Virus record (IMG/VR): IMGVR_UViG_3300017776_000007
Location: 1,664 to 65,663 of that record
Length of the DNA stretch: 64,000 nucleotides
Source: a virus
Taxonomy: Duplodnaviria > Caudoviricetes
Direction: 5' to 3' (one strand)
Shown here: in pieces, positions 5,412-31,584 of the stretch
How positions within the stretch are numbered: the stretch's first letter is position 1
How the letters are laid out: each line of letters begins with the position of its first letter
Made by a program: the position numbers and the translations under genes
Notes under the pieces: model-generated
What the model saw: only the letters and a program-made list of their open reading frames with translations
What the model was told of the DNA's origin: nothing
The model's database searches: none

Positions 5412-5412
5412 T

Positions 5413-6149: not shown

Positions 6150-6159
6150 TAAAAAAGTG

Positions 6160-6188
6160 TTGACAAAGTCCTATAAATGTGTTATAAT
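6160..6188 (+). promoter_or_regulatory. Early sigma70 promoter
   Basis: AAAAAAGTG-TTGACA(6160)-17 bp-TATAAT(6183). Confidence 0.88.
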
Positions 6189-6194
6189 ATACAC

Positions 6195-6662
6195 ATGAAA
6201 AAGGAAAAAAGACATATTATATTTGACGTTGATGGAACCATCGCAGACGTACAACACAGACGTAAGTTTGTAGATGGTTCCCAACAAAAAGATTGGCCTT
6301 CCTTTAAGGCTGCTACAGTAAATGATACCCCTATTCAGTGGGTATGCGAGGCGGCTAAACAACACGTAAAAGATCAAGATGTAGTAATATTCGTATCTGC
6401 AAGGAACACTTCTGAAAAGGATATTACAGTAAAACAAATACAAGAATGGATAGGTATACAAGATCCTATACTATTTTTAAGACCAGACGGCGACTTCAGG
6501 CCTGACCACGAATTTAAACAAGACGTATTGGGTCATATACAAGAAGCCATAGGTGGTAATCCAGACTTGGTATATGACGACAGAAATCAAGTAGTTGATA
6601 TGTGGAGATCAAATGGAATCGAAGTTAATCAAGTAGTTGATAGAACATCAGGTAACTTTTAG
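6195..6662 (+). CDS. HAD-family phosphatase (PseT/PNKP phosphatase-domain-like)
   Basis: FDVDGT, FVSAR, YDDRNQVVDMWR motifs. Confidence 0.85.
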   Translation: MKKEKRHIIFDVDGTIADVQHRRKFVDGSQQKDWPSFKAATVNDTPIQWVCEAAKQHVKDQDVVIFVSARNTSEKDITVKQIQEWIGIQDPILFLRPDGDFRPDHEFKQDVLGHIQEAIGGNPDLVYDDRNQVVDMWRSNGIEVNQVVDRTSGNF

Positions 6663-6663
6663 T

Positions 6664-6732
6664 GAGGATACTAGGTTCGGGACATCATATGACGATTATA
6701 AACTACCCGGTAATCATCGCCCTAGTATCCTC
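6664..6732. other. Intergenic stem-loop, candidate structured RNA
   Basis: Perfect 12-bp inverted repeat GAGGATACTAGG/CCTAGTATCCTC enclosing 45 nt. Confidence 0.55.
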
Positions 6733-6766
6733 TCTAAAATTACTTGAAAAAAGATTAAAAAAAGTG

Positions 6767-6795
6767 TTGACAAATACTTCAAAATGTGTTATAAT
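6767..6795 (+). promoter_or_regulatory. Early sigma70 promoter
   Basis: AAAAAAAGTG-TTGACA(6767)-17 bp-TATAAT(6790). Confidence 0.88.
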
Positions 6796-6818
6796 ATACA
6801 CATATGATAAGGAGAAAT

Positions 6819-7397
6819 ATGAAAGATAATGTAATTTTAATTGACTGTGATGGAGTACTATGTGATTGGGAATACGCATTTACTCAGTTTATGCATCACA
6901 AAGGATTCCCAACAGTTGAACCAAGTGCATATAATGTTGGTACAAGGTTTAATTTTACCAGAGAACAAGGTCATAACTTCGTTAGAGAATTTAATGATTC
7001 AGCGGCCATAGGTTTTCTACCCCCTTTAAGAGATGCAGTTTACTACGTCAAAAGGTTGAATATGTTACATGGATATAAATTCCATTGTATCACATCATTG
7101 AGTACCAATAGGTATGCTCAGAAACTAAGAATCCAAAACCTCGAATTACTATTCGGTAAAGAGTTATGGGAAGATTTTACTTTTCTACCATGCGGAGCGG
7201 ATAAAGACGAAGAACTTGCTAAGTTTAAAGATACTGGATGTTTCTGGATCGAAGATAAACCAGAAAATGCACAAGTCGGTGTGGATATGGGCCTCGAATC
7301 TATCTTAGTCGCTCATACACATAATACTGATGAGGTAAACATTCCTAGGTATTGGAAGTGGAAACATATTTACAAGCACATTGTGGGAGAACTATAA
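6819..7397 (+). CDS. HAD-family nucleotidase (T4 gp30.2-like)
   Basis: IDCDGVL, WIEDKPEN; adjacent to the ligase as in T4. Confidence 0.78.
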   Translation: MKDNVILIDCDGVLCDWEYAFTQFMHHKGFPTVEPSAYNVGTRFNFTREQGHNFVREFNDSAAIGFLPPLRDAVYYVKRLNMLHGYKFHCITSLSTNRYAQKLRIQNLELLFGKELWEDFTFLPCGADKDEELAKFKDTGCFWIEDKPENAQVGVDMGLESILVAHTHNTDEVNIPRYWKWKHIYKHIVGEL

Positions 7398-8665
7398 TGG
7401 AACCATGGGAAATAATTAAACACATCGAAACAGATAACAGTAGGTTATTTAAAGAGGATGTCCTAAAACAACACATGGACAATGAAGAATTTGTCAAGGG
7501 TCTGCAGAAGTGTTTCGACCCTTTGATTACCTTTGGGACAAGGGAAGTACCAGTAAAGAAAGAACCTAACGGGCTAATGGAGCCATGGTTTACATGGTCA
7601 CAATTTGAACAACTCTGTTATAACCTAGAAACCAGAACTCTTACAGGTCATGCTGCAAGAGATGCCATACTCAATGCTATGGCCATTTGTGATCAGACAG
7701 CATGGAATTTTTGGTATCGTAGAATTTTATTAAAGTCTATCGATGCAGGATTTGGAGAAAGAACCATTAATAAAATTGCCAAAGGTACTATACCAAGATT
7801 TAGTTGTATGTTGGCCAAAGATGGTAAGGATGGTAAAGGTCTTGTAGGTAAATGTCTTATCGAATACAAGTATGATGGTGTAAGGTGTATTGCAATTGTA
7901 AAGAATAACGTTGCTACCCTTTACAGCAGAAACGGTAAAGTATTTCCTAATTTTCCTCACATAGAGGCCGCATTAAGTAAACCTGAATTTAATGATTGTG
8001 TCTTTGATGGCGAGATTATGAGTGAGAACTTTCAGGCTCTAATGAAACAAGTTTATAGAAAGTCAGATGTACAAACAGAAGATGCATTTATGGCTCTCTT
8101 TGATATAGTGGACTTACAAGAATGGGAGAAAGGTAAAGGTCAGTTAAATACTTTGGAAAGAAAAGAAATATTGGATAATATGGTCTTTGAAGATTGTATT
8201 AAACCAGTTGATTATACCATGGTAAACTTTGATACAGAGAATGGTAATAATACATTCAAAGCCATGAATAAAGAGGCTTTAGAAAAAGGTTACGAAGGGT
8301 TAATGGTTAAACCTATCGAGTCTTTATATGAATGTAAAAGATCAGCCTCTTGGTTAAAAATCAAACCCATTATTGAAGTCACTCTTATGGTAGAGGCCAT
8401 AGAAGAAGGGCAGGGTAAATTTATAGGTACTACAGGTGCTCTAGTTTGTGAAGGTGTTGATGATGGAGTCAATATTAAAGTAAACGTAGGGTCAGGTCTT
8501 ACAGATGAATTACGAGATGCAATTTGGAATAATCAAGAAGATGTGTTACATCAATTGGTTGAAATTAGAGCAGATGCCATTACTCAAAATGAGGATGGTA
8601 ATTACAGTTTAAGGTTCCCTAGGTTTAAAACATTTAGGGGTTTTGAAATAGGCGAAAAAATATAA
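7397..8665 (+). CDS. ATP-dependent DNA ligase (gp30)
   Basis: EYKYDGVR motif I, FDGEI, EGLMVK, WLKIK, SLRFPRF. Confidence 0.93.
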   Translation: MEPWEIIKHIETDNSRLFKEDVLKQHMDNEEFVKGLQKCFDPLITFGTREVPVKKEPNGLMEPWFTWSQFEQLCYNLETRTLTGHAARDAILNAMAICDQTAWNFWYRRILLKSIDAGFGERTINKIAKGTIPRFSCMLAKDGKDGKGLVGKCLIEYKYDGVRCIAIVKNNVATLYSRNGKVFPNFPHIEAALSKPEFNDCVFDGEIMSENFQALMKQVYRKSDVQTEDAFMALFDIVDLQEWEKGKGQLNTLERKEILDNMVFEDCIKPVDYTMVNFDTENGNNTFKAMNKEALEKGYEGLMVKPIESLYECKRSASWLKIKPIIEVTLMVEAIEEGQGKFIGTTGALVCEGVDDGVNIKVNVGSGLTDELRDAIWNNQEDVLHQLVEIRADAITQNEDGNYSLRFPRFKTFRGFEIGEKI

Positions 8666-8675
8666 GGAGTAAATT

Positions 8676-8912
8676 ATGAGCTTTTCAGGAACTAGTATTA
8701 AATATAAAGGTATTGCAAAGGATTCTACTATTGTGTGGAAACCTAAGAAATACGAGGTCGATGCATTTGATTATGATAAGGTGAAGGCCAGAGTCGAAAA
8801 ATGTAAAGAAGAAGGCGATAGAAAGGCCTTAGAGGTGATCACTAAAAATATTAAAAGGGTATGTAAAGATAACCCAGATATTTTTGATGATTTTTTAAAA
8901 CTTGTAACATAA
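8676..8912 (+). CDS. Hypothetical protein
   Basis: TAAGGAG SD, 78 aa. Confidence 0.65.
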   Translation: MSFSGTSIKYKGIAKDSTIVWKPKKYEVDAFDYDKVKARVEKCKEEGDRKALEVITKNIKRVCKDNPDIFDDFLKLVT

Positions 8913-8920
8913 GGAGAATA

Positions 8921-9115
8921 ATGCCAACAAAATTAGGAAAGTCTTACAAGACTGTTGACAGAGCCACTAAAAAGGTAACTGTAATGAACCCATACATTAA
9001 AGGTATGGCCAAAAAGGATCTCATAGAGAAGTATAACGACAAAAATACTAGACCGAAAGATAAGAGGAAGATTAAAAATGAATTGGTTAGGAGAGGCGGT
9101 GTCGTCTTTAATTAA
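8921..9115 (+). CDS. Small basic hypothetical protein
   Basis: TAAGGAG SD, 64 aa, Lys/Arg-rich. Confidence 0.65.
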   Translation: MPTKLGKSYKTVDRATKKVTVMNPYIKGMAKKDLIEKYNDKNTRPKDKRKIKNELVRRGGVVFN

Positions 9116-9212
9116 GGGATTCTTTAATATAATTAAATGGGTTATAATATTGTTCATAGTAGTAGCAATATGCATGACCGTTATTCAATACGGTAGTATA
9201 ACTCAATTCTAA
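9099..9212 (+). CDS. Small single-TM peptide (37 aa; not in ORF track)
   Basis: GTG after AGGAGAGG; MSSLIKGFFNIIKWVIILFIVVAICMTVIQYGSITQF. Confidence 0.45.
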   Translation: MSSLIKGFFNIIKWVIILFIVVAICMTVIQYGSITQF

Positions 9213-9223
9213 ATCTCTGGCTG

Positions 9224-9231
9224 TATAAATA
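9224..9231 (+). promoter_or_regulatory. T4-type late promoter
   Basis: TATAAATA, 5 nt before ATG 9237. Confidence 0.75.
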
Positions 9232-9236
9232 GATAT

Positions 9237-9395
9237 ATGGCCAGAACAGCAAAAATAATAAAAACAATTGCCACTAAACCCAAGTGTTCTTCACAGGGGT
9301 TAGGTGGTCGTGGTCGTTCAACCAAAATAGGGTTGAGTACTATGAACAAACATAGAAAACGGAGCTATAAGGGTTATCGTGGGCAAGGTAAGTAA
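9237..9395 (+). CDS. Small very basic protein ending YRGQGK (52 aa; not in ORF track)
   Basis: MARTAKIIKTIATKPKCSSQGLGGRGRSTKIGLSTMNKHRKRSYKGYRGQGK*. Confidence 0.7.
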   Translation: MARTAKIIKTIATKPKCSSQGLGGRGRSTKIGLSTMNKHRKRSYKGYRGQGK

Positions 9396-9594
9396 AAACG
9401 ATATTACTGGAGACAGTATTCAAACAAAAGTAGCAAGTAATGCATATTGGGATAACTATGATGCAATATTTGGAAAGAAACAAAAAGTAAAACAACAGTC
9501 AATGACTGAACTTAATTGGGATGGAAATGAAGACCGAGGCAGGTATGGCGAAGATGAGTCGAAACAAAACGAGGTATCATCGAGTTCTGTTTGA
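9379..9594 (+). CDS. Small phage hypothetical protein
   Basis: KNDITGDSIQTK...YWDNYDAIFGKK; GTG start. Confidence 0.55.
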   Translation: MGKVSKNDITGDSIQTKVASNAYWDNYDAIFGKKQKVKQQSMTELNWDGNEDRGRYGEDESKQNEVSSSSV

Positions 9595-9694
9595 TCAGGA
9601 CAGTCCATTCAAGCGTCATCAAGTTGTTCCCAATAAAAAGAAAAATATTCCGCGTAAGTCAAAGAACGGGAATATAAATATAAAAGAGGATTAA
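9545..9694 (+). CDS. Small basic protein (49 aa; not in ORF track)
   Basis: MAKMSRNKTRYHRVLFDQDSPFKRHQVVPNKKKNIPRKSKNGNINIKED*; GAGGCAGG upstream. Confidence 0.45.
   Translation: MAKMSRNKTRYHRVLFDQDSPFKRHQVVPNKKKNIPRKSKNGNINIKED
9673..9680 (+). promoter_or_regulatory. T4-type late promoter
   Basis: TATAAATA followed by AGAGGA SD and ATG 9697. Confidence 0.65.
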
Positions 9695-9696
9695 AT

Positions 9697-9960
9697 ATGG
9701 CAGATTTATTAGATTTTGATTTCGGGTTTACCGCAGTTGATGAAAATGAACTAGAGGCAGTACAAAAGGTTACTACTGAAGCTTCTAGCACGTCTGCTTC
9801 CTTACAAGAAACAGAAGAGAAACTTAACAAATTGTATAACTCGATCTTGCCACTTCTTACTAATTTAAAGAAGAATCCCGAAAAGGAATATATTCTCTGG
9901 CCAAATAGAGTAGAGAAAATAGAGCAATTTGAGGATTTAATTTCGGGGATAATTAAATGA
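9697..9960 (+). CDS. Conserved phage hypothetical protein
   Basis: DFDFGFTAVDE and NLKKNPEKEYILWPNR motifs. Confidence 0.7.
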   Translation: MADLLDFDFGFTAVDENELEAVQKVTTEASSTSASLQETEEKLNKLYNSILPLLTNLKKNPEKEYILWPNRVEKIEQFEDLISGIIK

Positions 9961-11291
9961 CACTAATTTCAAGTGGTGCATTGGCATTAAAAGATTTAGG
10001 AACTAACCCATCCTCTAGTACAATATTGGATACTGGTTATAATGCATTTTCTCTGGCATCTGATACTTCGTTTACTTTAAATCAGGCTTATAGGCTATAT
10101 TATGATGGCGAAGTAAATGCTTGGGAATATGCCAATGATGTGCTTGTTGATGGAACTGCATATGTATATAAAAGGCAATCAACTTCGGCCTATCACGATT
10201 CAGGCCACCAGACAGGTATTTATAGCGCCACTGGTTATACTGCTGATATAGGTACTGCATTAGAACGAACAGGACAAGCAACAGCATACTCTTCCCAAAC
10301 ATATGTTTCTGGAATTGGTTTAAATGCTAGTTCAAGTTCTACACTAGGAAGTTTAACCTCAGCTGCTCAAACATTTGGATCTCCTGATGGTAATACTCGT
10401 ACTATTAGTGATTTCGGATTATGTCAAAATACAAATTCAAATACTGGTTACAACCAATCCCAAGATAAGGGTAATATAATTTGGTTTGGCCTTGTCGGTT
10501 TAGTATCTAATACTGATACTGCTGCATTTTATAATATGACTATTTATGATAGTAGCGGTAATGGAATAACTGGCCTCACTAGATCAAGTGCAACTTATGT
10601 ATATGACGGAAATGTCACAATATGGACTTGGCATAACGTTGCTGATAGCTCTATGAATTATGTGTCACAAAGTGGTATAACCAGAATGATATTAACTTCG
10701 GCAAGTGCAACATCATTTAATAATGGTATTTCAGAAGAAATGTCAGGCGGCACTGATTCTAATCCGATTAAAATGAGCGACTATTATAAAGGTGGAACTT
10801 ATCACAATACCCCGAATATACCCACTTCTGGACAAATAGAATTTTCAGATTTTTATGGAAAGGCAAGAGTTGGGGCAGGCGGCACTAGTATACATGCAAC
10901 TAGTTGGGTTGGGGAATTTAATTGGAACTATGTATCGTTTTCTGGATTTAATAATGCATCAAGTCTAGGATCTATGGGCACTGCTTCTTTTACTTATCCA
11001 AGTAGTACTACTGCATCAATTATTACTCTTTATAATATTAATAACGGAAACACTTATCTTACTTTAAGCGGAAACCAGTTTCCGAATAGTGGTTGGTCGA
11101 ATTTAAAAATATGGGTAAATAATTCCACCGGATCGGGTAGTCCGACTTATACCTTTACCCGAAGTAGTGGAACTAGATCAGTAAACACATCTGCTTCTCC
11201 TAATACAACAACTTGGCTTTGGAGTGGTAGTCACGCATATGCGCCAGCAACTATTGGAGCAACATATAATAACTATTTGGTAATCGACTAA
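9957..11291 (+). CDS. Ser/Thr/Gly-rich putative virion/fibre protein
   Basis: Beta-rich composition; IKMSDYY...IPTSGQIEFSDFYG motif typical of phage fibre-associated proteins. Confidence 0.6.
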   Translation: MTLISSGALALKDLGTNPSSSTILDTGYNAFSLASDTSFTLNQAYRLYYDGEVNAWEYANDVLVDGTAYVYKRQSTSAYHDSGHQTGIYSATGYTADIGTALERTGQATAYSSQTYVSGIGLNASSSSTLGSLTSAAQTFGSPDGNTRTISDFGLCQNTNSNTGYNQSQDKGNIIWFGLVGLVSNTDTAAFYNMTIYDSSGNGITGLTRSSATYVYDGNVTIWTWHNVADSSMNYVSQSGITRMILTSASATSFNNGISEEMSGGTDSNPIKMSDYYKGGTYHNTPNIPTSGQIEFSDFYGKARVGAGGTSIHATSWVGEFNWNYVSFSGFNNASSLGSMGTASFTYPSSTTASIITLYNINNGNTYLTLSGNQFPNSGWSNLKIWVNNSTGSGSPTYTFTRSSGTRSVNTSASPNTTTWLWSGSHAYAPATIGATYNNYLVID

Positions 11292-12175
11292 TGGAATATA
11301 CATATAAAAATTTGGGTGGTGAATCTATACCCGCTGATGAAAACTTACCAAGACCTAAATATCCAATTATTAGAGTTACTGATAAGAATGGTAGTTTTTC
11401 TGAAAAACAAATGGTCTATACTGACAATGCATTAGACTTTGATAAAAGTCAAAGATCAGTTTTGGCAGATTATGAAATGGCTATAGGTCAAGGTAAGACC
11501 CACATGGACTATACTTTTGCAAATTTAGGAAAGGTATGGAGAGATGATGTATATATGGCTGGGGAATTAGCCAGACAAGATATTTCTATCTCAACAGATG
11601 AAGGGTCTTCTATAGTAGATAAATTAGAAGCAGGATGGGACGGATTTGTTCCTGATTACAGGACACGGAATATTAATTTAGTATCAGAGTTTACTCCTTT
11701 GAGAGCGCCGTATGTCAATAATAGTATTTCTTTTTATGAACAGAATTCTCCAAGCGAAGAATTAATTACTCAATATGGTCTACCCTATGAAACATATTTG
11801 CCATGGTACGGTTTAAAATTCGACAAGGTCACTAACTCTGTTGCAATGAAGGCTGTATTACCATTCGTTGAAATGCACAGAGTTCACTCAGACATTGCTA
11901 CGAAAATAGAAAAGTTAATACCAGTTTGTGGTAATCATTTCTTTGCAGTTATATATAATACAGAGAAAAAAATAAATAGTAATATTGATGTTTATTTTTA
12001 TGCAAGTCACGATACTGTTTCAAACTGGATTAATACTAAAAATCCGGATATGGCATTACCATATACAGATACTTCATTAAATGATAAACTATGGATTTGG
12101 GGCGCTGTATATAATACAGAATTAAATAAACTTACGCATCTTAAGGCGTATATAAGATATTATTTAGAGGATTAA
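11291..12175 (+). CDS. Hypothetical protein
   Basis: 294-aa ORF coupled to the upstream gene (TAATG). Confidence 0.6.
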   Translation: MEYTYKNLGGESIPADENLPRPKYPIIRVTDKNGSFSEKQMVYTDNALDFDKSQRSVLADYEMAIGQGKTHMDYTFANLGKVWRDDVYMAGELARQDISISTDEGSSIVDKLEAGWDGFVPDYRTRNINLVSEFTPLRAPYVNNSISFYEQNSPSEELITQYGLPYETYLPWYGLKFDKVTNSVAMKAVLPFVEMHRVHSDIATKIEKLIPVCGNHFFAVIYNTEKKINSNIDVYFYASHDTVSNWINTKNPDMALPYTDTSLNDKLWIWGAVYNTELNKLTHLKAYIRYYLED

Positions 12176-12176
12176 T

Positions 12177-12641
12177 ATGTTTTTTAATAGAGACAAAGAT
12201 ATTGACGTTGATCAATTAAGAGAACAACTTATTATAGATGAGGGACAAGTAAATGAAATTTATAATGATCACCTCGGTTATGCTACATTTGGCATTGGAC
12301 ACTTGGTACTGGAAGGAGACCCAGAACATGGGATGGAGGTCGGTACTCCAGTGGCAGAGGATAGAGTCATTGAATGTTTTGCCAAGGATGTAGAAACAGT
12401 TATCAAAGATTGTAAAAAATTACATGATGGTTGGGACGGTTACCCACAAGAGGTGAAACAAATCGTTGCAAATATGATGTTTAATATGGGACTCACGCGC
12501 TTGAGCAAATTTAAGAACCACAACGCAGCGCTGCAATGTGGTGATTGGAAGGAGGCGGCTGTAGAAGGTCGTGATTCAAGATGGTACAAACAAGTGACAA
12601 ATCGAGCGGAAAGACTTATGTCGAGACTAGAGGCGGTATAA
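12177..12641 (+). CDS. Phage lysozyme (GH24, T4 lysozyme-like)
   Basis: DEG...YNDHLGYATFGIGHL catalytic E-D-T pattern, NMMFNMG, SRWYKQVTNRAERL. Confidence 0.92.
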   Translation: MFFNRDKDIDVDQLREQLIIDEGQVNEIYNDHLGYATFGIGHLVLEGDPEHGMEVGTPVAEDRVIECFAKDVETVIKDCKKLHDGWDGYPQEVKQIVANMMFNMGLTRLSKFKNHNAALQCGDWKEAAVEGRDSRWYKQVTNRAERLMSRLEAV

Positions 12642-12766
12642 ATTATTATCATACCGACGAACCTCAAACTGAAAAAGGATGGTATTGGTGTTACGAAAAG
12701 AAAGGTCTTTTCAGATACACTGATTGGAATATAACTAAAGAAGAAATGGAGAAGAAATATGGCTGA
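12581..12766 (+). CDS. Possible small Trp/Tyr-rich protein (start uncertain)
   Basis: Fills the gap between lysozyme and 12759; KGWYWCYEKKGLFRYTDW. Confidence 0.35.
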   Translation: MVQTSDKSSGKTYVETRGGINYYHTDEPQTEKGWYWCYEKKGLFRYTDWNITKEEMEKKYG

Positions 12767-13007
12767 CTCAGTCGAACTTTTGGGATCTGAAACAAATTTA
12801 GCTTCTGCAACTAGTGTAGGTAATGCTACCTTGGTTAGAGTATATAACTCTGGTAATGCTGGATTGGTCACTCTTAAAGATGGATCAACAGTAGTAGGTA
12901 CAGTTACACTAAAGCAGTATGAATGCTTAAATATGCAAAAGGCCCCAGCACATACGTTAGAGGGTGGTTCTGGTTTTAAGGTTGTTAAAATAGCCTTTAC
13001 GAACTAA
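12759..13007 (+). CDS. Small beta-rich hypothetical (possible virion) protein
   Basis: GGAGA SD, 82 aa. Confidence 0.65.
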   Translation: MADSVELLGSETNLASATSVGNATLVRVYNSGNAGLVTLKDGSTVVGTVTLKQYECLNMQKAPAHTLEGGSGFKVVKIAFTN

Positions 13008-13033
13008 TTTACACTTTCTTAAGGTCATACCTA

Positions 13034-13041
13034 TATAAATA
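13034..13041 (+). promoter_or_regulatory. T4-type late promoter heading the curli/cyclase cluster
   Basis: TATAAATA, 5 nt before ATG 13047. Confidence 0.75.
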
Positions 13042-13046
13042 AAAGT

Positions 13047-13343
13047 ATGGCCGAAATCTTTGAATTAATTGCTCAAGTCGGTGCTCCTATTGCGGGAGCA
13101 CTCGCTATGGGCGTCTTTATTTTCCTAATTATAAAACAAATTTTAGAAGGGCTAGTCGGGCAGATTAGAACCCTTACACTGTTTTGTGAGTCATTGGAAA
13201 ATAGAGCAAGAACTATGGCGAATGAAATGATTAAAATTGATATGTTAGTCAGTAGTGCGCTTGAATTGAGGCCAGATATAGAAAGAGTTGCACGTGCAGA
13301 AAACTTTGTTGAAGATGGTAAAGTTGATGTGAGACGTGACTAA
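13047..13343 (+). CDS. Single-TM coiled-coil membrane protein (holin-like)
   Basis: IAQVGAPIAG TM segment followed by a helical soluble tail. Confidence 0.55.
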   Translation: MAEIFELIAQVGAPIAGALAMGVFIFLIIKQILEGLVGQIRTLTLFCESLENRARTMANEMIKIDMLVSSALELRPDIERVARAENFVEDGKVDVRRD

Positions 13344-13450
13344 TGGTAGACGAAGTCGAAATGGTTGAATATTCATTTACTAGAGACTTTATTCTAATGT
13401 GTTCATTAGGACTGAATGTGGGATTTTTCATAAGTTTATTATTTATTTAG
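13343..13450 (+). CDS. Small TM peptide (35 aa; not in ORF track)
   Basis: TAATG coupling; MVDEVEMVEYSFTRDFILMCSLGLNVGFFISLLFI*. Confidence 0.5.
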   Translation: MVDEVEMVEYSFTRDFILMCSLGLNVGFFISLLFI

Positions 13451-13459
13451 GAGAATAAT

Positions 13460-13711
13460 ATGGATCAATTGGTAAACGGTATTTCAGATTATGGATTCCC
13501 AATTGTTGCATGTGTTGGTTTTGGCTACTTTCTATATTATATTTGGTGTTTTATTTCAGATGTAATAGAACCTGAAATAGAGAAGATGCATATGGCATTA
13601 ATTAGAGTTATTGACCAAACAAGAATGCTCGATCAGGATTTAATAAGATTGCAGCAAAAGGTCAATGTGGTTTTGGAATATAAGGAAAATGAAAAAAAGA
13701 AACGCGAATAA
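13460..13711 (+). CDS. Single-TM coiled-coil membrane protein (YvrJ/BhlA-holin-like)
   Basis: ISDYGFPIVAC TM motif, coiled-coil tail; AGGAG SD; resembles the 13047 protein. Confidence 0.55.
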   Translation: MDQLVNGISDYGFPIVACVGFGYFLYYIWCFISDVIEPEIEKMHMALIRVIDQTRMLDQDLIRLQQKVNVVLEYKENEKKKRE

Positions 13712-14258
13712 CAGAGAATGGGAATTATTAAAGAGCGCTGTAGGCCCTAGAATTTGGGATAGATGGGATTTATTTCATGCATTTATTTTTGGATGTATTA
13801 TAACATTTTTATTTATGTCGCCTGCTGCTTTTGCAGATGAAATAAAATTTGGGTTTAAAAATCCATCTTTTAGTGGACAAGGTACTGGAGCTCATTATTT
13901 AACAATTGAGAATCAAGAACATTCCCGTAAAAAGGCAATAGAAGATGCCTTAGAGGCCGCTAGAAAGGCAGCCGAAAGAGAAGAAAATAATACAACACTT
14001 GCTAAGTTTATACGAAACTTGGAGAGCAGAATTTATGCTCAAATGGCCAAACAGATGGTTGAATCCATGTTTAGTAATGATGGCTCAGTAAGATATGGTT
14101 CATTTACATTGGAAGGCAGTGTGGTAACATACGAAGTACTTACCAATGAGGATGGTTCAGAATATATTAAAATGACAATAGTAGATTCTGAGGGAACAGA
14201 AACTATAATTGAGATTCCTGTAGGCACAGGTAACTTCGGGCAAGACTCGGATGGCTAA
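13689..14258 (+). CDS. csgF: Curli assembly component CsgF-like
   Basis: Signal peptide ending AFA, then EIKFGFKNPSFSG (CsgF N-terminal F-x-NP-x-F-x-G motif); directly upstream of csgG. Confidence 0.75.
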   Translation: MKKRNANNREWELLKSAVGPRIWDRWDLFHAFIFGCIITFLFMSPAAFADEIKFGFKNPSFSGQGTGAHYLTIENQEHSRKKAIEDALEAARKAAEREENNTTLAKFIRNLESRIYAQMAKQMVESMFSNDGSVRYGSFTLEGSVVTYEVLTNEDGSEYIKMTIVDSEGTETIIEIPVGTGNFGQDSDG

Positions 14259-15225
14259 GTATATTGGAATCATATTTTTAAGTATTTTAACTGGTTGTGC
14301 ATCTATACCGCAATGGAGTCCCGATCCGAAAGACTGTAACGATTTGGCTGGCAAGTATGATGAAGGTTTTAATCGACATCTTCAAATGGGTATACAGAAG
14401 ACTATGTCCAGAAAGTATATCTGTGTGGATGAACCAACTGCAGTTAGGTTACCAGCATATGTGGACTTATTAAATCTTCCACCTGCTAAGGAAAGACCAG
14501 TAGTTGCAGTATATAGTTTTATTGATAAAACAGGTCAAAGAAAATCAGTAGATAATATTGCATCATTTTCTACTGCAGTTACCCAAGGTGGTACAGAATT
14601 ATTAATAGATGCTCTAAAAACTGCAGGTGGAGGCACCTGGTTTAGAGTAGTAGAAAGGCAAGGTATTGATAACCTAGTCAGAGAAAGACAAATAGTAAGG
14701 TCGACACGACAAGATGTAGCAAAAGCATCAGGTGTAGACGCTAAAGGTGTGGGACCACTCTTATTCGCAGGAATGATTATAGAGGGTGGTATTATTGGGT
14801 ATGATACTAATACCGAAACTGGTGGCCGTGGAGCACGAACACTTGGTATCGGGTTTAGTAAAATGTATCGTAAAGACGTTGTAACGGTTTCTGTAAGAGC
14901 AGTATCGGTACTAACGGGTGAAATATTATTAAACGTTCAAGCCAAGAAATCGGTACTTTCTTATGGTGGTGGGGGTGATGTGTTCAGGTTTATAGAGCAA
15001 GGCACCCAATTAATTGAATATGAAGACGGAGTGGGAAATAATGAGTCAGTGACATACGCAGTACGGTCTGCCATTGAGGCTGCTGTACTTGAATTAATAT
15101 ACCAGGGGCATGACCGTAACTTCTGGGACTTAACCGAGGGCCACAGGCATCCGCATCAGTCTAACGGAGCGAATGCAAGGCACTCATTAAAAGAGGATAA
15201 CGAAAATGATGAAGAAAAAGATTAG
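14251..15225 (+). CDS. csgG: Curli secretion channel CsgG family lipoprotein
   Basis: Lipobox LTGC; VAVYSFIDKTGQRK, STAVTQG, WFRVVER.G.DNL.RERQI, EGGIIGYD motifs. Confidence 0.92.
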   Translation: MAKYIGIIFLSILTGCASIPQWSPDPKDCNDLAGKYDEGFNRHLQMGIQKTMSRKYICVDEPTAVRLPAYVDLLNLPPAKERPVVAVYSFIDKTGQRKSVDNIASFSTAVTQGGTELLIDALKTAGGGTWFRVVERQGIDNLVRERQIVRSTRQDVAKASGVDAKGVGPLLFAGMIIEGGIIGYDTNTETGGRGARTLGIGFSKMYRKDVVTVSVRAVSVLTGEILLNVQAKKSVLSYGGGGDVFRFIEQGTQLIEYEDGVGNNESVTYAVRSAIEAAVLELIYQGHDRNFWDLTEGHRHPHQSNGANARHSLKEDNENDEEKD

Positions 15226-15940
15226 TTTATTGTTCTTAATATCTATGGCGAGTTCATCAGTTTTCGCTGATGCAGATGATAATGAAATCATGATAGAACA
15301 GAGTGGTGACACTTTGACTCTATATATTGATCAAGTGGGATATGGTAACAAAATTGGTGGTAATGACTTTTCATCGTCACCTAGTGATATGGTAATTACA
15401 GGTTCTAGTTTAACATTTAATCTTGACATGATTGGTAACCAAAACTTGATTTATGGGCCTTTAACACTTGATTCATCCAGTTTAACATTTAATCTGACTG
15501 GTGATTCTAACGAAGTAGATTGGAGTGTTGGAGTAACTGGAAGTTCTGATACTTCAAATTATAACTTTGCAGTGACCGGTGATTCAAACACATTTGATAT
15601 TGATCAAGGTGCCGTAGTAAGTGCTGAAAGATTGGATGCAGATTTAATATTATTAGGTAATTCTAATGTATTCGATTTGGATTTTGAATCTGATGATGCT
15701 ACTTGGAACTTTGATATTACTGGAGATAGTAATAATGTTAATACTCTCCAAAAGGATGGTGAACATACTATAACAGTAGAATGGAATGGCGACGGCGGAG
15801 ATATTGATATTAATCAGTTAAGTGGTACTTGTGTTGGAGGTTCGCCTTGTGCAACACCTAATGCAATTATCAATTTAGATATTACATCTGACAATGCTAC
15901 AGTCCAAATTAATCAGACAGACAAAGCTAACGATAGTTAG
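15206..15940 (+). CDS. Secreted curlin-like beta-repeat protein
   Basis: Signal peptide; repeated (I/L/V)xGxxNxV/F units (TGDSNEV, TGDSNTF, LGNSNVF, TGDSNNV); acidic. Confidence 0.7.
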   Translation: MMKKKISLLFLISMASSSVFADADDNEIMIEQSGDTLTLYIDQVGYGNKIGGNDFSSSPSDMVITGSSLTFNLDMIGNQNLIYGPLTLDSSSLTFNLTGDSNEVDWSVGVTGSSDTSNYNFAVTGDSNTFDIDQGAVVSAERLDADLILLGNSNVFDLDFESDDATWNFDITGDSNNVNTLQKDGEHTITVEWNGDGGDIDINQLSGTCVGGSPCATPNAIINLDITSDNATVQINQTDKANDS

Positions 15941-17009
15941 TTTTTTACTATTCGCCAGTGGGGTTAAAGCTGATTCCATTGGTGATATAGTAGAGTCAAC
16001 TGGTGTTGGCCAGATCGTTAGAAATAACGAGCAGATAACTGTTACTGGCCAAAAAATACCTGTACAGTTATATGATGAGGCGAAAACTGGAAACGGAAGA
16101 ATATTAATTGAATTCTTAGATAAGGCAGAACTGGCCTTAAAAGAGCATTCAGAGGTATTAATAGACGAAATATATTATGACCCGGATCCTTCACTCTCAA
16201 AAATGAGTATGAAGTTTACAATGGGTACAGCTAGATTTGCATCTGGTAGATTGGGTTTAGTAAATAAAGCCAATATAGACATCTCAACCCCTACTGCATC
16301 GATTGCTGTTAGGGGAACAGATTTTACTACTACCGTAGATGAATTGGGCAGATCGCTTATTATATTATTACCAGATGATAATGGTGACCCTTCGGGAGAA
16401 ATAGTAGTTTCAAATGAAGGAGGCGAGGTTACCTTAACTCAGGCCTATGCGGCCACAATGGTATCTTCACTAGACCAATCACCAACACAAACAGTTGTCG
16501 TTAATGGTATCACACCAGCTTTAATTGACAATATGTTTATTGTTGCACCTCCGCCTGAGGTTGAAGATCAAATAAAAGAAGAAATGGCGGATGATGCAGA
16601 ACAGGATAAAGGTCTTCTTGATATTGACTTTTTAGAATTTGATGAATTAGAAAAGGATGAATTAGAAGAAACAGAAGAAGACTTAGATTTTAACGAACTT
16701 GATATTGATGAATTAAATGTCGATTTTTTAGTTGACGTTTTAGATATTATTGATTCTTCCGATTTATTTGATACCTTAGGTGAATTTAATATTAAGGGCG
16801 CAGCAAAGGGGTTCAATGATGAATCCCAATTTAATGTATTCTTAGAAGACGGCGCATTGGTTCTATATAGAAATGTGAATGGTAAAATAAGAATTAAAAT
16901 TGGAGCTGGTGGTAATTTTACAGTGGACTCCATAACACCAACTTGGGAAGGTATCATAACAGGGAATGAGGGAGAAGATATCCTCATTTATATTAATCAG
17001 GTGAATTAA
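15894..17009 (+). CDS. FecR-domain periplasmic protein
   Basis: D.AKTGNGR..I.F.D, TPTASIAVRGTDF FecR motifs; N-terminal signal; acidic C-terminal linker. Confidence 0.85.
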   Translation: MLQSKLIRQTKLTIVSFLLFASGVKADSIGDIVESTGVGQIVRNNEQITVTGQKIPVQLYDEAKTGNGRILIEFLDKAELALKEHSEVLIDEIYYDPDPSLSKMSMKFTMGTARFASGRLGLVNKANIDISTPTASIAVRGTDFTTTVDELGRSLIILLPDDNGDPSGEIVVSNEGGEVTLTQAYAATMVSSLDQSPTQTVVVNGITPALIDNMFIVAPPPEVEDQIKEEMADDAEQDKGLLDIDFLEFDELEKDELEETEEDLDFNELDIDELNVDFLVDVLDIIDSSDLFDTLGEFNIKGAAKGFNDESQFNVFLEDGALVLYRNVNGKIRIKIGAGGNFTVDSITPTWEGIITGNEGEDILIYINQVN

Positions 17010-17741
17010 ATGAAAGTAACAGGAACACATTTAGGCATATTAATTATATTATTATTCTTTACAGCACAAATATTTGCTGATGATAATATAATCTCGTTAG
17101 AACAATCTGGAGATAATTTACAGTTAGGTGTTGATCAGATTGGATATGATAACGAAATTACAATGTTAGATGGTAATTCATATATTAATGCATCAAGCCT
17201 TGGTATGTACTTGGTTCAAGTGAATACAAGCACTGGTTCTAATCCTAACACAATCACATTCGATGAAGTGAGTGGAACAGGTAATAAAATGAAACTCGGT
17301 CAAGGTATTGCTTGGACTACACTTGATTCTGATACTGATTTAACATGGTACTATGATAATTACGAAGGTGGTGGCCATGAGATTGATATAACCATGTATG
17401 GCGACTATAATGAATTAGCAGTTCAACAAACAAACCAAACAGGTGCATTAGATGGACATGATTTTGATTTACACTTGGCTGGTGATTATAACGATGTTCA
17501 AATAAAGCAACAAAGTAATGGTGCAAAAAATATAGACCTTACAATATATAACGACTATAATGATGTATTCATTCGGCAGAAAGGTGCCAATGCAACTCAC
17601 AGTGCAAATGTAACACTTGATGGGTTATATGGTACCGACTTAACATTAAAACAATTAGGAACTACAACACAAACATATAGTATTAGCATTAACTGTATGA
17701 CAGTAGGTGGTTGTTCTACAACAGTCGAGCAAGGTAATTAA
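17010..17741 (+). CDS. Secreted curlin-like beta-repeat protein (second paralog)
   Basis: Signal peptide; GDYNELAVQQ, GDYNDVQIKQ, NDYNDVFIRQ repeats; N-terminus resembles the 15206 protein. Confidence 0.72.
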   Translation: MKVTGTHLGILIILLFFTAQIFADDNIISLEQSGDNLQLGVDQIGYDNEITMLDGNSYINASSLGMYLVQVNTSTGSNPNTITFDEVSGTGNKMKLGQGIAWTTLDSDTDLTWYYDNYEGGGHEIDITMYGDYNELAVQQTNQTGALDGHDFDLHLAGDYNDVQIKQQSNGAKNIDLTIYNDYNDVFIRQKGANATHSANVTLDGLYGTDLTLKQLGTTTQTYSISINCMTVGGCSTTVEQGN

Positions 17742-17743
17742 TA

Positions 17744-18010
17744 ATGGAAGAATTTAAATGCCCAGAAGATATGATTTGCATGACAGACGAACAGTGGTAT
17801 GATTTTGTAAATGAATACGAAATAGACCTAAGTGGCGAATTAGAAATGGCAGAAATAAGTGACGCCCAGGCAGTTGCTGATTTTACATGGCAAGTATTAT
17901 TCTTAACTCCATGGGAGTTGGCATATATTGCATTACCGATGAGTGTCTTGGCCTTCTACGGGTTAAGTATATACGCAATCTTTAAATACATTCAAAGAAG
18001 ATTTAGCTGA
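17744..18010 (+). CDS. Small membrane protein
   Basis: Acidic N-terminus with CPEDMIC, C-terminal TM helix. Confidence 0.6.
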   Translation: MEEFKCPEDMICMTDEQWYDFVNEYEIDLSGELEMAEISDAQAVADFTWQVLFLTPWELAYIALPMSVLAFYGLSIYAIFKYIQRRFS

Positions 18011-18090
18011 TGAATTCTTATCAAAGATTTCTTCGTCTTAAATATGGGTGGGGTATTCCTAAAGGCTTATATATAGACGTATACGCATGA
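18010..18090 (+). CDS. Possible 26-aa coupling peptide
   Basis: TGATG overlap with the upstream stop and ATGA overlap with the cyclase start. Confidence 0.35.
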   Translation: MNSYQRFLRLKYGWGIPKGLYIDVYA

Positions 18091-19931
18091 AATATATTAC
18101 TTCGATATGGACTACAATAGTTCTAATAGCATGTATTCTTTTTGTAAGAATAAATGATCCTGAATTCTTACAACAGATCAGACTAACAGTCTTTGATCAA
18201 TATATAAACACACTACCAGAAAAACATTCAGACCAAGTTGTTCTCTTAAATATTGGAGAAGAATCCCTTGGAGAATTTGGCCAGTATCCCTTTCCTCGTC
18301 AGCAGTATGCACAATTAATATCCGATTTAAGAAATGCCAATGCAGGTATGATAGGGTTTACTATTATGTTTCCAGAGGCAGATAGGTTTGGTGGGGATGA
18401 AGTCTTTGCGTCATGGGTAAAAGATAATGGGATTATACTCTCACAAGATGCAGATAATAGTGGGAGAAGTTCAAAGGCTCCCTATGTAGGTACTGCTGTA
18501 TTTGGTAGTGGAGATCCTTTAAACCATGTAATTCGATATAATGGACTTGTAACAAATATATCTGAAATAGAAGAAGGTGCCTGGGGCCATGGATTAATCA
18601 ACGCTATGCCAGAAGTTGATGGAGTGGTAAGACGAATACCTCTAATCTCTCAAATAAATGAAGAATTATATCCATCATTTGCACTAGAAATGATACGAGT
18701 GTTAAACGAGAAAATATCTTATACGGTAAAGGTTAACGAAGTAGGGTTAGAAGAAATCATATTGCGACCTTTCAGAATATCAACTGATGTGAATGGCTCG
18801 ATCTGGATTAATCCTAGATACCATTTTCAGGATATAGAATATACTTCTGATCCTCTTCCGAATCTACAGGGTAAGACTGTACTTGTGGGTCTAACTGCAA
18901 AAGGTCTTGCATCTCAGATTCCAACTTCTCAAGGATTAAAATCGGCTCATCAGATTCAAGCATCTGCGATTCAGACGATAATAAATGGGGATCAGATAAC
19001 CCGTCCTCTTTGGGCTGATATTGTGGAGATTGGTCTATCTCTGATTGGGGCTTTATTGATCGTAGGAGCAGTTTATTATCTTCCGATTTGGAGTAGTGGT
19101 TTAATCTTCTTTGCCGTTGTTGGGTTATCATCCTACGGCGCATTGTTTTTCTGGAACGAATTTGGATATCTCCTTGACCTTAGTTATTCACTAATATTAT
19201 ATATACTTTCGTTCACTTCAGCATCGTTTAATAATTTCTATAAACAGTTTGCACTCAGACAACAAATTAAGAAACAGTTCGGAACCTATCTATCACCTGA
19301 TATGGTTTATATGTTACAGAAGGATCCTTCACTACTAGCACTTGGAGGTGAAAGAAAAGAGATGTCGTTCTTATTTATGGATATCTGTGGGTTCACCCCC
19401 ATCAGTGAGCACTATAAGAATAACGACGATCCCGAAGGATTGGTAGAATTGGTCAACGAATTCTTAGATTCCATGACAAAAATCATACTTAATAACGGCG
19501 GAACAATAGATAAGTATATGGGAGATTGTATTATGGCATTCTGGAATGCCCCTATCCCATGTGAGAATCATGCTGAGATGGCCGTTAAATCATCAATAGA
19601 AATAGAGGCTAAAACAAATGAACTTAAAGAAATATATAAGGCAAGAGGTCTTCCTGATATTAATGTCGGTACTGGCATTAACACCGGCGATTGCATTGTT
19701 GGTAACATGGGTTCTGAATCCAGATTCGATTACTCAGTCATTGGAGATGCAGTCAACCTTGCAGCCCGTCTCGAGGCCACTGCCGCTCGGCACGAGTATG
19801 TAGAATATAAGACAATCATATCATCATTCACCCGAGACCAGTTACCTGAACAGTATAAGTGTGAAGAAATTGGTAACATAAAGGTAAAAGGCAAAGACGA
19901 ACTTATAACCATTTATTCTCCTAAGTTATAA
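18087..19931 (+). CDS. CHASE2-domain class III adenylate cyclase
   Basis: N-terminal TM, CHASE2 (GQYPFPR, DGVVRRIPL), about 3 TM, cyclase motifs FMDICGFT, IDKYMGDCIMAFW, FDYSVIGDAVNLAARLE. Confidence 0.92.
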   Translation: MKYITSIWTTIVLIACILFVRINDPEFLQQIRLTVFDQYINTLPEKHSDQVVLLNIGEESLGEFGQYPFPRQQYAQLISDLRNANAGMIGFTIMFPEADRFGGDEVFASWVKDNGIILSQDADNSGRSSKAPYVGTAVFGSGDPLNHVIRYNGLVTNISEIEEGAWGHGLINAMPEVDGVVRRIPLISQINEELYPSFALEMIRVLNEKISYTVKVNEVGLEEIILRPFRISTDVNGSIWINPRYHFQDIEYTSDPLPNLQGKTVLVGLTAKGLASQIPTSQGLKSAHQIQASAIQTIINGDQITRPLWADIVEIGLSLIGALLIVGAVYYLPIWSSGLIFFAVVGLSSYGALFFWNEFGYLLDLSYSLILYILSFTSASFNNFYKQFALRQQIKKQFGTYLSPDMVYMLQKDPSLLALGGERKEMSFLFMDICGFTPISEHYKNNDDPEGLVELVNEFLDSMTKIILNNGGTIDKYMGDCIMAFWNAPIPCENHAEMAVKSSIEIEAKTNELKEIYKARGLPDINVGTGINTGDCIVGNMGSESRFDYSVIGDAVNLAARLEATAARHEYVEYKTIISSFTRDQLPEQYKCEEIGNIKVKGKDELITIYSPKL

Positions 19932-19980
19932 CGTTATTCCAAAATATTCTAAAAAAATACAATTATTTTTAATAAATGTG

Positions 19981-20008
19981 TTGACAAACTGGTTGAGCAT
20001 GATATAAT
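19981..20008 (+). promoter_or_regulatory. Early sigma70 promoter
   Basis: GTG-TTGACA(19981)-16 bp-TATAAT(20003), extended -10. Confidence 0.8.
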
Positions 20009-20039
20009 ATACCTATATTAAATGATAAGGAGTTTAATT

Positions 20040-20201
20040 ATGACAGATACCGAAATCAAAGATTTTTTCCCAATCTTGGATGCACTACGTGATAGTGGTG
20101 CAATGAACATGTTTGGTGCACCCCGTTGGTTAATAGACAATATGGATATAACCAAACAAGATGCAAAAACTGTTTTCCTTGCTTGGTTAAAAACATGCTA
20201 G
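20040..20201 (+). CDS. Small early protein (53 aa; not in ORF track)
   Basis: TGATAAGGAG SD; MTDTEIKDFFPILDALRDSGAMNMFGAPRWL... Confidence 0.75.
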   Translation: MTDTEIKDFFPILDALRDSGAMNMFGAPRWLIDNMDITKQDAKTVFLAWLKTC

Positions 20202-20590
20202 ACATTGTCATTACTTCCCACATCAAACATAAGAATGACGTATATGATTATGTTTGGGACATCTGTAAAGACCTTAAAATACACAGGTTGAATCGAGATA
20301 TAACAATCAAATATAAATCAAGACTAGAAGATGATGCCTGGGGCTGGGCCGTAGGTGATACCGACGAATGCGACATTGAAATTAATCGTAGTATAGAATG
20401 GCATCAGCAATTGATAACCTTAGCCCACGAATTGGTTCATGCAAAACAATATTTCAGAAAAGAACTTGATGCATCGTTTGCATGGAAAGGAAGAAATTGG
20501 AAAAAGTGTGCATACGAATGGCAACCATGGGAGCGACAAGCACACGCTCTAGAGCTTAAACTTTATAAAAAGCATTGGTTGGGATTATAA
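20195..20590 (+). CDS. HExxH zinc metallopeptidase-like protein
   Basis: TLAHELVHAKQ and PWERQA motifs. Confidence 0.75.
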   Translation: MLDIVITSHIKHKNDVYDYVWDICKDLKIHRLNRDITIKYKSRLEDDAWGWAVGDTDECDIEINRSIEWHQQLITLAHELVHAKQYFRKELDASFAWKGRNWKKCAYEWQPWERQAHALELKLYKKHWLGL

Positions 20591-20645: not shown

Positions 20646-20674
20646 TTGACAAATGGTGCTAGATAGGTTATAAT
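20646..20674 (+). promoter_or_regulatory. Early sigma70 promoter
   Basis: AAAAAAAAGTG-TTGACA(20646)-17 bp-TATAAT(20669). Confidence 0.88.
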
Positions 20675-31579: not shown

Positions 31580-31584
31580 ATAAC

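Follow-up and report, generated by a model that had tools for sequence, protein, structure and literature searches.

A marine T4-like phage block joining curli-type secretion genes to a FecR-domain protein and a probable CHASE2 adenylate cyclase, with a counterpart on bacterial chromosomes

Genes of the curli-type, or type VIII, secretion system (T8SS) have been described in several groups of phages infecting marine bacteria. Zaragoza-Solas et al. 2020 (PMC7029224) described CsgF and CsgG together with three neighbouring genes in pelagimyophages, in a main text that does not mention a cyclase, FecR or CHASE2, and Buchholz et al. 2022 (PMC9004378) proposed a lysis-timing pore for phage Melnitz, with neither a cyclase nor FecR mentioned in the available part of the article. 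The fullest account, that of Wittmers et al. 2022 (PMC9599517), lists in its available text an "HK", CsgF, CsgG, CsgA/B, FecR, a second CsgA/B and an adenylate cyclase, places this module in HTVC023P-type SAR11 podophages and, by hidden Markov model search, in myophages, gives metatranscriptome hits, reports an alphaproteobacterial origin, and records CsgE, CsgC/CsgH and CsgD as absent. Here we analyze a block of this kind at positions 13034-19931 (+ strand) of a 64-kb stretch of DNA, referred to below as the window, which makes up most of the 65.7-kb IMG/VR virus record IMGVR_UViG_3300017776_000007 (39% complete according to CheckV) and carries the gene set of a marine T4-like myophage.

The gene content of the block is thus already published, and the window is a further carrier of the pelagiphage T8SS module. 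An earlier note on this DNA, made from the sequence alone, had mentioned csgF and csgG genes as reported in marine T4-like phages; such genes are indeed published, and the note understated the record, because the whole block including FecR and the cyclase appears in the portions of Wittmers et al. (PMC9599517) that were available. What is added here is the identification of the sensor domain as CHASE2, the recurrence of FecR-CHASE2 pairs, a bacterial version of the block, the lack of support for a "histidine kinase" label, and the conservation of a promoter motif. The term CHASE2 has no occurrences in the main texts of Wittmers et al. 2022 and Zaragoza-Solas et al. 2020, and no link of CHASE2 to phage curli genes was found in the literature searched; the supplements of Wittmers et al. 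(Fig. S3 and data sets) may name it, or may contain bacterial operons with FecR. For the combination of T8SS, phage and adenylate cyclase, the literature yielded Wittmers et al. and reviews only.

We tentatively interpret the block, at somewhat less than even confidence, as a late-expressed type VIII secretion module of bacterial origin that is genetically fused to a FecR/CHASE2 cyclase sensor pair. The block consists of two small membrane proteins, CsgF, CsgG, a curlin-like protein, a secreted FecR-domain protein, a second curlin-like protein, a small tail-anchored protein and the cyclase. All of these open reading frames (ORFs) lie on the + strand, and neighbors abut or overlap by 8-47 nucleotides (nt), save for 116 nt between 13343 and 13460 and 76 nt between 18010 and 18087, so that the single operon-like run described in the earlier note is borne out. 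Pfam searches likewise confirm its assignments of the CsgF, CsgG, FecR, CHASE2 and cyclase domains.

A scan of IMG/VR with the window CsgG yielded 237 relatives, and the best 80 of these (65-98% identity) were examined, with co-occurrence counted only where the contig is long enough. Downstream of CsgG, FecR is present in all 62 loci that could show it and the cyclase in all 44; upstream, both small membrane proteins occur in 74 of 74, and the gene order is constant. The earlier note had named the absence of FecR and the cyclase alongside csgF and csgG in related phages as grounds against its proposal; the counts show instead complete co-conservation. This pattern suggests that selection acts on the whole block.

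The same order (small proteins, CsgF, CsgG, curlin, FecR, curlin, cyclase) in the same marine T4-like myophage setting is found in Pelagibacter phage HTVC008M, with a cyclase 43.5% identical to that of the window, and in four records of Methylophilales phage Melnitz (34.6%). The window differs from these phages in belonging to a separate, populous subclade, its CsgG being 51% identical to that of HTVC008M and 46% to that of Melnitz. The placement of the block differs as well: in the window it lies between replication genes and the helicase-loader/ssb pair, upstream of the latter, whereas in HTVC008M and Melnitz it lies downstream of ssb. Furthermore, a lysozyme gene is linked to the block in the window, as discussed below.

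The putative secretion channel resembles the Escherichia coli curli apparatus in several respects. The CsgG outer-membrane lipoprotein (14251-15225, +; PF03783, 6.7e-52, 176.3 bits against a cut-off of 20.8) begins with MAKYIGIIFLSILTGC, which holds the lipobox LTGC noticed earlier, and matches E. coli CsgG (4uv2) at 1.1e-45 over residues 65-296. The CsgF-like protein (13665-14258, +; PF10614, 7.9e-16, 58.9 bits against a cut-off of 25.8; phrog_35372) has a signal-peptide-like segment at amino acids (aa) 34-58, so its true start may be further downstream. Its mature N-terminus is DEIKFGFKNPSFSG, in which the FxFxNPxFxG stretch, FGFKNPSFSG, aligns with FQFRNPNFGG of E. coli CsgF (6l7a_J). In published structures, the N-terminal peptide of CsgF plugs the CsgG barrel. 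The shared features are a CsgG fold-family member with a lipobox, the CsgF N-terminal peptide, and repeat-bearing, solenoid-like substrates. The phage block departs from the E. coli system in several ways. It has no CsgE, CsgC, CsgH or CsgD family among its ORFs at Pfam E<=0.01; its substrates are ~220 aa long after the signal peptide, with repeats under the Curlin_rpt cut-off; and it has a FecR-domain protein and a cyclase built into the operon. The constriction stretch of CsgG is retained in part. In E. coli CsgG, the constriction residues are Tyr, Asn and Phe; in the alignment of this stretch (E. coli KPYP-ASNFSTAV, window KSVDNIASFSTAV), Phe is retained, Asn is replaced by Ser and Tyr is lost.

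As a separate observation on CsgF, the long N-terminal extension of its ORF (13665-13790, …NNREWELLKSAVGPRIWDRWDLFHAF…) resembles the N-terminal extensions of curlin-like protein 2 in some relatives (…NEERAWEMLKQAQGPGIWTGKDLFKAF…; L013:12772-12960 and L075:4460-4650). The two extensions may represent a shared extended leader that precedes the signal-peptide core.

That CsgG, or CsgG with CsgF, serves instead as a secretin- or pinholin-like pore timing lysis, with the other genes modulating its opening, is the proposal made for Melnitz by Buchholz et al. 2022 in the available part of their article (PMC9004378), and we consider it very unlikely for this block. A lysozyme gene does lie within 2.6 kb upstream of csgG in 34 of the 63 loci with room for it, the window included, which is compatible with a role in lysis; yet the link is missing in the other 29 of 63 loci, in HTVC008M and in Melnitz. 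A further lead, and a lead only, is that small membrane protein 1 falls near a Holin_BhlA cluster (0.85) at a score below counting level. However, a channel across the outer membrane leaves the inner membrane polarized, and the invariable retention of CsgF and of two secreted repeat proteins would be unexplained.

The presumed substrates of the channel are curlin-like protein 1 (15206-15940, +) and curlin-like protein 2 (17010-17741, +). Each contains one Curlin_rpt match, with E-values of 1.3e-3 and 1.2e-3 and scores of 19.1 and 19.2 bits, respectively, below the cut-off of 20.7. In both, a signal-peptide-like segment lies at the N-terminus, GDxN...Q units are repeated and a pair of Cys residues is conserved; in protein 2 this pair is C229 and C235 near the C-terminus, invariant in 12 sequences. 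Protein 1 is acidic in composition. The two proteins are homologous to each other (hhalign 98.5%, E 2.5e-15). The AlphaFold (AF2) model of protein 1, built from a 13-row alignment, is all-beta, with a predicted local distance difference test (pLDDT) score of 73.8. Foldseek retrieved nothing from the PDB at E<=0.001 for this model, and VIA-align matched it to SufD-type beta-helices (Z about 16) and, at rank 4, to Pontibacter CsgA (8c50_A; Z 15.6, 19% identity). We read both proteins as curlin-like solenoids that stop short of membership in the Pfam family, a view that relies on their sequences and on the model of protein 1. Of the earlier curlin-like calls, then, the resemblance gains from the mutual homology and the predicted beta-solenoid, and the family assignment itself stays sub-threshold.

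Beta-helical repeats are common in tailspikes, several of which appear lower in the same VIA-align fold list, and the block is preceded by a late-type promoter motif, as structural genes are. It is nevertheless extremely unlikely, in our judgement, that the curlin-like proteins are virion or tail-fibre parts and that the block is not their secretion system: they bear signal-peptide-like segments and conserved Cys pairs, their genes always lie beside csgG and csgF, and the bacterial chromosomal versions of the block described below carry curlin-like genes too.

Between the two curlin-like genes lies the gene for a secreted FecR-domain protein of 371 aa (15894-17009, +; PF04773, 9e-8, 32.9 bits against a cut-off of 24; phrog_37870, 1.1e-67). 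Behind a signal-peptide-like segment come the FecR domain (about aa 30-210), a linker that is very acidic and a C-terminal domain of small size; Asp and Glu make up 70 of the 371 residues. The FecR domain was modeled at pLDDT 70-89, and from residue 212 on, that is, across the linker and the C-terminal domain, pLDDT is below 50. The N-terminal domain of the model matches the C-terminal cell-surface signaling domain of PupR (6ovk_R; Foldseek E 4.4e-4, 155 columns, root-mean-square deviation 3.3) and also a Bacteroides anti-sigma factor. The FecR-domain fold is thus shared with the Fec/Pup type of cell-surface signaling. The phage protein differs from that type in having no cytoplasmic anti-sigma domain and no transmembrane anchor, and neither extracytoplasmic function sigma factor nor TonB-dependent receptor families were found in the 15 ORFs scanned around the block. 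Identification as a Fec-type anti-sigma factor was accordingly rejected, given the signal-peptide start and the lack of a cytoplasmic domain or membrane anchor. We also considered the C-terminal domain, which ends in ...INQVN like the curlins, as a curlin-type repeat that joins the fibre; this is unsupported (hhalign probability 0.2%).

The last gene of the block encodes an inner-membrane CHASE2 class III adenylate cyclase of 614 aa (18087-19931, +), with CHASE2 (PF05226, 4.5e-39, 135 bits) at aa 14-325 and the catalytic domain (Guanylate_cyc, PF00211, 4.6e-20, 72.4 bits) at aa 424-608. Hydropathy shows hydrophobic segments at aa 1-24 and in a block at aa 307-357, which implies a periplasmic CHASE2 domain and a cytoplasmic catalytic domain. 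The closest solved relative is Pseudomonas aeruginosa CyaB (3r5g, 3.8e-32), with which the motifs FMD 430, DKY 475, GDC 479, FDY 547 and NLAAR 557 align at corresponding positions. All seven catalytic or ATP-selecting residues are present (D432, D480, K476, D548, N557, R561 and R546), so the earlier residue-level claims on the metal-binding Asp, the ATP-selecting Lys and Asp and the catalytic Asn and Arg hold, each of the five motifs having been located. Among 12 phage cyclases with 32-79% identity to that of the window, there is no variation at D432, K476, D480, R546 and R561, at least 90% retain D548 and N557, and many CHASE2 positions are likewise invariant. Judging from the specificity residues, the product is probably cyclic AMP (cAMP).

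The catalytic domain also matches the profiles of cyclases from Pycsar anti-phage systems (PycC; 1.6e-24). Unlike in Pycsar, however, the Lys/Asp pair is of the ATP-selecting kind and the best solved relative is an adenylate cyclase, the cyclase gene is on a phage rather than in a defence island, and neither an effector nor a cNMP-binding protein was found in the phage. PADLOC gave no match for the other eight ORFs of the block, and no cNMP_binding domain was detected in the record of the window or in five related phage records, two of which are complete genomes. Any cAMP receptor would thus be a host protein.

The combination of a secreted FecR-domain protein with an adjacent inner-membrane protein that carries a periplasmic CHASE2 domain has precedents in bacteria. 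The Burkholderia 'BiofilmReg' operon contains a LysM/FecR protein and a CHASE2 histidine kinase, according to the available text of PMC5192318; the phage block differs in that its output is a cyclase, fused to the T8SS block, and not a two-component kinase, and its FecR protein has no LysM. In Sinorhizobium meliloti, cyaD1 adjoins the FecR-domain gene smc02177, and a CHASE2-deleted CyaD1 was used as a constitutive source of cAMP (PMC5498481, in the part available), which supports CHASE2 as an inhibitory input domain.

Species-representative genomes were also scanned with the cyclase alignment, which matched at least 582 stretches, and the best 80 were taken as a collection of bacterial loci (L numbers). 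The phage-FecR profile matches an ORF in the fetched flanks of 21 of these 80 loci. Pfam confirms FecR in four (L117, L135, L124 and L156) of the 12 loci whose neighbors were scanned, and also beside or near the cyclase in L138, L110, L142, L123, L131 and L091. In several of the FecR loci, the FecR domain heads a large secreted RTX-repeat protein that adjoins type I secretion genes. As far as gene neighborhoods can indicate, a recurring theme in bacteria is a CHASE2 cyclase that accompanies a secretion system and a secreted FecR-domain protein. The FecR-CHASE2 link drawn in the earlier note therefore has bacterial precedent, both in this synteny scan and in the two published cases as seen in the accessible text (PMC5192318, PMC5498481).

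Several other loci of the collection are worth describing. Low-GC (31-34%) single-amplified and metagenome-assembled genomes (SAGs and MAGs) of marine alphaproteobacteria form one cyclase clade (L138, L110, L120, L132, L147, L150 and L159). One of them, L138, encodes at 5067-13578 a C39 ABC exporter, an HlyD adaptor with a cNMP-binding domain, a CHASE2 cyclase, a cNMP-binding protein and a DUF1538 protein and, a few kb away (17328-20087), a large RTX protein with a FecR domain, a layout that looks like cAMP-gated type I secretion. In two SAR86 loci (L121:6796-11800 and L087:7461-11728), the CHASE2 cyclase is flanked by a TPR protein and a DUF481 protein, and no FecR was found among the neighbors scanned.

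The recurrence of FecR beside CHASE2 bears on another possibility, in which the FecR-domain protein serves the curlins as chaperone or gate in the periplasm, replacing CsgE, CsgC or CsgH, and the cyclase acts independently in host takeover by flooding the cell with cAMP. The location of the FecR gene between two curlin genes, the very acidic and probably disordered linker (given the low pLDDT from residue 212 on) and the lack of a match to the CsgE, CsgC and CsgH families among the block ORFs would all suit such a role. However, FecR genes recur next to CHASE2 sensors in bacteria without nearby curli genes, and the full CHASE2 sensor, with its many invariant positions, is under selection in the phages. 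We regard this alternative as quite unlikely. Direct prediction of a complex between the periplasmic domain of CHASE2 (aa 22-308) and mature FecR (aa 27-371) gave 0.00 in both runs, and the controls were unfolded, so that the prediction is uninformative on binding.

Two bacterial loci contain the block itself. In the Caulobacteraceae MAG contigs L085 (4992-12084) and L113 (5029-11049), with a GC content of 55-57% (31-40% in the window), CsgF, CsgG, two curlins, FecR and the CHASE2 cyclase occur in this order, without the small membrane proteins. The flanks are ordinary chromosomal genes that differ between the two contigs, including those for methylmalonyl-CoA mutase, acyl-CoA dehydrogenase, TauD, a TonB-dependent receptor and glycosyltransferases. 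After the cyclase, L085 encodes a membrane protein of the PycTM type, a Pycsar effector (PF18967, 8.8e-25; PADLOC PycTM, 9.6e-18), and L113 a TetR-like gene.

In a tree of 84 cyclases (14 from phages and 70 from the 80 bacterial loci, the other ten being excluded for matches that were short, interrupted or on the other strand), every phage cyclase falls into one clade with L085, L113 and the short contigs L084 and L086, with a support of 100 in the SH-like approximate likelihood-ratio test (SH-aLRT). Within this clade, the phage cyclases and L084 constitute a subclade (SH-aLRT 98), outside of which the Caulobacteraceae MAG cyclases fall; the tree is midpoint-rooted only and gives no direction of transfer. 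A phage-type FecR (E<=1e-30) was found in one of 301 genomes of the order to which the Caulobacteraceae MAG belongs, that one being the MAG itself, so the bacterial form is rare among the genomes searched. Taken together, the block, apart from the small membrane proteins, was probably acquired as one unit from a bacterium and not assembled in phages; the abstract of Wittmers et al. 2022 (PMC9599517) implies phage assembly from curli genes and unrelated regulators. As to the two short contigs, L084 (Rhizobiaceae MAG) has a cyclase of 62% identity that nests in the phage clade, and L086 (Saprospiraceae MAG) has a curlin 2-like ORF upstream of the cyclase; both look like phage fragments mis-binned into MAGs.

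The block begins with a motif resembling a T4-type late promoter, TATAAATA (13034-13041, +), 5 bases before the ATG of the first gene. The earlier note had placed a late promoter at this position, and the motif is indeed conserved: of 76 related loci, 52 have it no more than 70 nt upstream of the first small gene, in most cases starting at -13 or -14. In the loci without it, the first small gene mostly abuts the preceding ORF. The motif is not enriched window-wide (15 found against 12.7 expected, a count reached in 28 of 100 shuffles), but the same 5-base geometry is seen before the baseplate-wedge gene (ATG 36873; 36860-36875) and before the DNA-end-protector gene on the minus strand (31579; 31577-31592). 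The motif and the gene arrangement suggest that 13034-19931 is transcribed late as one unit, whose first cistron may be leaderless. A related observation is that, with 5 bases between each of the three motifs (13034-13049, 36860-36875 and 31577-31592 on the minus strand) and its ATG, a ribosome-binding site cannot be accommodated; late transcripts in this group of phages may carry little or no leader. Most of the 52 motif-bearing loci preserve this spacing ahead of the first small gene.

Seawater or viral metagenomes contain DNA nearly identical to that of the window (13 runs, representing at least 10 studies). Among contigs of RNA libraries (four libraries in two studies), some cover parts of csgG and of the genes for curlin-like proteins 1 and 2, with 0-2 differences per 151-539 bases. 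Some parts of the block have no such contig, and the contigs by themselves give no transcript starts, strand or levels.

Combining these observations, the following scheme can be proposed. Late in infection, the cell would build the CsgG-CsgF channel and export the curlin-like proteins to its surface. The CHASE2 cyclase would remain silent until it receives a periplasmic cue and would then produce cAMP; by analogy with S. meliloti CyaD1, deletion of CHASE2 would render it constitutive. The cue would probably be the state of secretion or of fibre assembly, reported by the FecR-domain protein, and cAMP would act on a host receptor. Candidate pay-offs are aggregation ("sibling capture"), a shield against superinfection and the timing of late events. 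The trans-envelope cAMP relay put forward in the earlier note is, in this light, a reasonable and testable reading, strengthened by the co-conservation, the intact active site and the FecR-CHASE2 synteny; superinfection sensing and control of lysis timing are speculation. In its most far-reaching form, the phage would install a full outside-in pathway in a host that lacks one, with the state of the channel, or of the fibre secreted through CsgG-CsgF, read by the FecR-fold protein, which gates CHASE2, and a cAMP pulse that senses contact with cells or phages and adjusts late events such as lysis timing. This form of the proposal we consider unlikely.

Conversely, fibre production could be the sole point of the block, with FecR and the cyclase regulating the expression or activity of the secretion system, amyloid-like fibres clumping siblings for the next infection round or shielding against competing phages, and cAMP feeding forward onto the module instead of reporting on the envelope. 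This is the view of Wittmers et al. 2022, as far as the available text goes (PMC9599517). It fits the signal peptides and conserved Cys pairs of both curlin-like proteins and the beta-solenoid model of protein 1, and the position of the L138 cyclase, between a cNMP-binding type I secretion adaptor and a cNMP-binding protein, agrees with secretion controlled by cAMP. Nevertheless, transcription from a T4-type late promoter does not require a cAMP-dependent factor, and none was found in the phage records searched; as a sensor domain located in the periplasm, CHASE2 implies that the input comes from outside; and Buchholz et al. 2022 (PMC9004378) report, in the part of the article available, no clumping in Melnitz-infected cultures. 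We therefore rate this explanation as rather unlikely, if a serious contender.

Several results weigh against our interpretation of the block as a secretion module fused to a sensor pair. On the secretion side, the constriction stretch of E. coli CsgG is retained only in part, both curlin assignments lie under the Pfam cut-off, and the beta-solenoid match of protein 1 is generic, with SufD-type helices scoring as high as CsgA. On the signaling side, the cyclase domain also resembles PycC profiles, so that its product is judged from the specificity residues, and the lack of a cNMP_binding domain in the six phage records searched leaves the output arm without a phage receptor. As to the FecR-CHASE2 pairing, 59 of the 80 bacterial loci have no FecR match in the flanking DNA, many of these loci being short, and FecR is among the scanned neighbors in only four of the 12 Pfam-scanned loci. 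In S. meliloti, moreover, the plant signal is perceived without smc02177, itself a target of cAMP/Clr, according to the available text of PMC5498481; this places the gene downstream, not upstream, of the cyclase and argues against a simple order from FecR to CHASE2. As for expression, the RNA-library contigs also cover flanking genes, and carry-over of DNA is possible.

The remaining members of the block are small proteins. Small membrane proteins 1 (13047-13343, +; 98 aa; phrog_18771, 3.5e-24) and 2 (13460-13711, +; 83 aa; phrog_18771, 4.1e-24) match the same PHROG family and are thus paralogues. Each has one N-terminal hydrophobic segment by hydropathy, which in protein 1 is followed by a helical tail that, like the rest of the protein, contains no His. 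Neither has a Pfam match at E<=0.01, the PDB profile search returned generic coiled coils alone (E>=0.049), and an ESM Atlas search with protein 1 led to unnamed viral clusters, the named ones, YvrJ (0.87) and the Holin_BhlA cluster already mentioned, being below counting level. The published "histidine kinase" label for these proteins is not supported: they are only 83-98 aa long and have no HisKA/DHp or ATPase domain, and no HisKA, HAMP or kinase family is among the listed Pfam matches (E<=1) of 22 family members. They were not found in the bacterial versions of the block. Between curlin-like protein 2 and the cyclase, a small acidic protein of 88 aa (17744-18010, +) is predicted to be tail-anchored through a C-terminal hydrophobic segment. 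It has no Pfam, PHROG, NCBIfam or PADLOC match and, by tblastn, is present in a minority of related loci only.

Elsewhere in the window, the replication genes include those for DNA ligase, PhoH, the helicase loader and a gp32-type ssb, and the structural genes encode baseplate hub and wedge, tail tube, head completion and long tail-fibre proteins. No tRNA gene that would give a hint of the host was found in the window. Directly upstream of the block (12177-13007) are the phage lysozyme gene (12177-12641; PF00959, 4.1e-7) and an 82-aa ORF (phrog_19805). Downstream, a perfect match to a sigma-70-type promoter (TTGACA-16-TATAAT with TG; 19981-20008, +) stands at the head of the following genes and so delimits the block, and a second perfect match follows at 20646-20674; overall, the sigma-70-type scan shows no enrichment (39 found against 46.6 expected). 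Behind the first of these promoters, a small Zn-metallopeptidase-like ORF is located at 20126-20590 (Peptidase_M91, 2.3e-4, below the cut-off; phrog_16532), a relative of which (28-45% identity) is found downstream of the cyclase in many related loci.

To conclude, for the window taken alone this is an ordinary result, one more carrier of a described module. SAR11 and OM43 phages are, however, among the most abundant viruses in the ocean, and they devote ~7 kb of the genome to this block, which stays intact across many lineages. The pairing of a CHASE2 sensor with a FecR fold turns an odd gene set into a testable circuit, in which cAMP output can be related to the upstream genes. If the most far-reaching form of the proposal, rated unlikely above, were correct, a CHASE2 cyclase combined with a secretion system and a secreted FecR-domain protein would represent a general and unrecognized bacterial circuit for sensing the cell's own secreted surface structures, and the loci with type I secretion, RTX-FecR and cNMP-binding proteins would be further examples of it.

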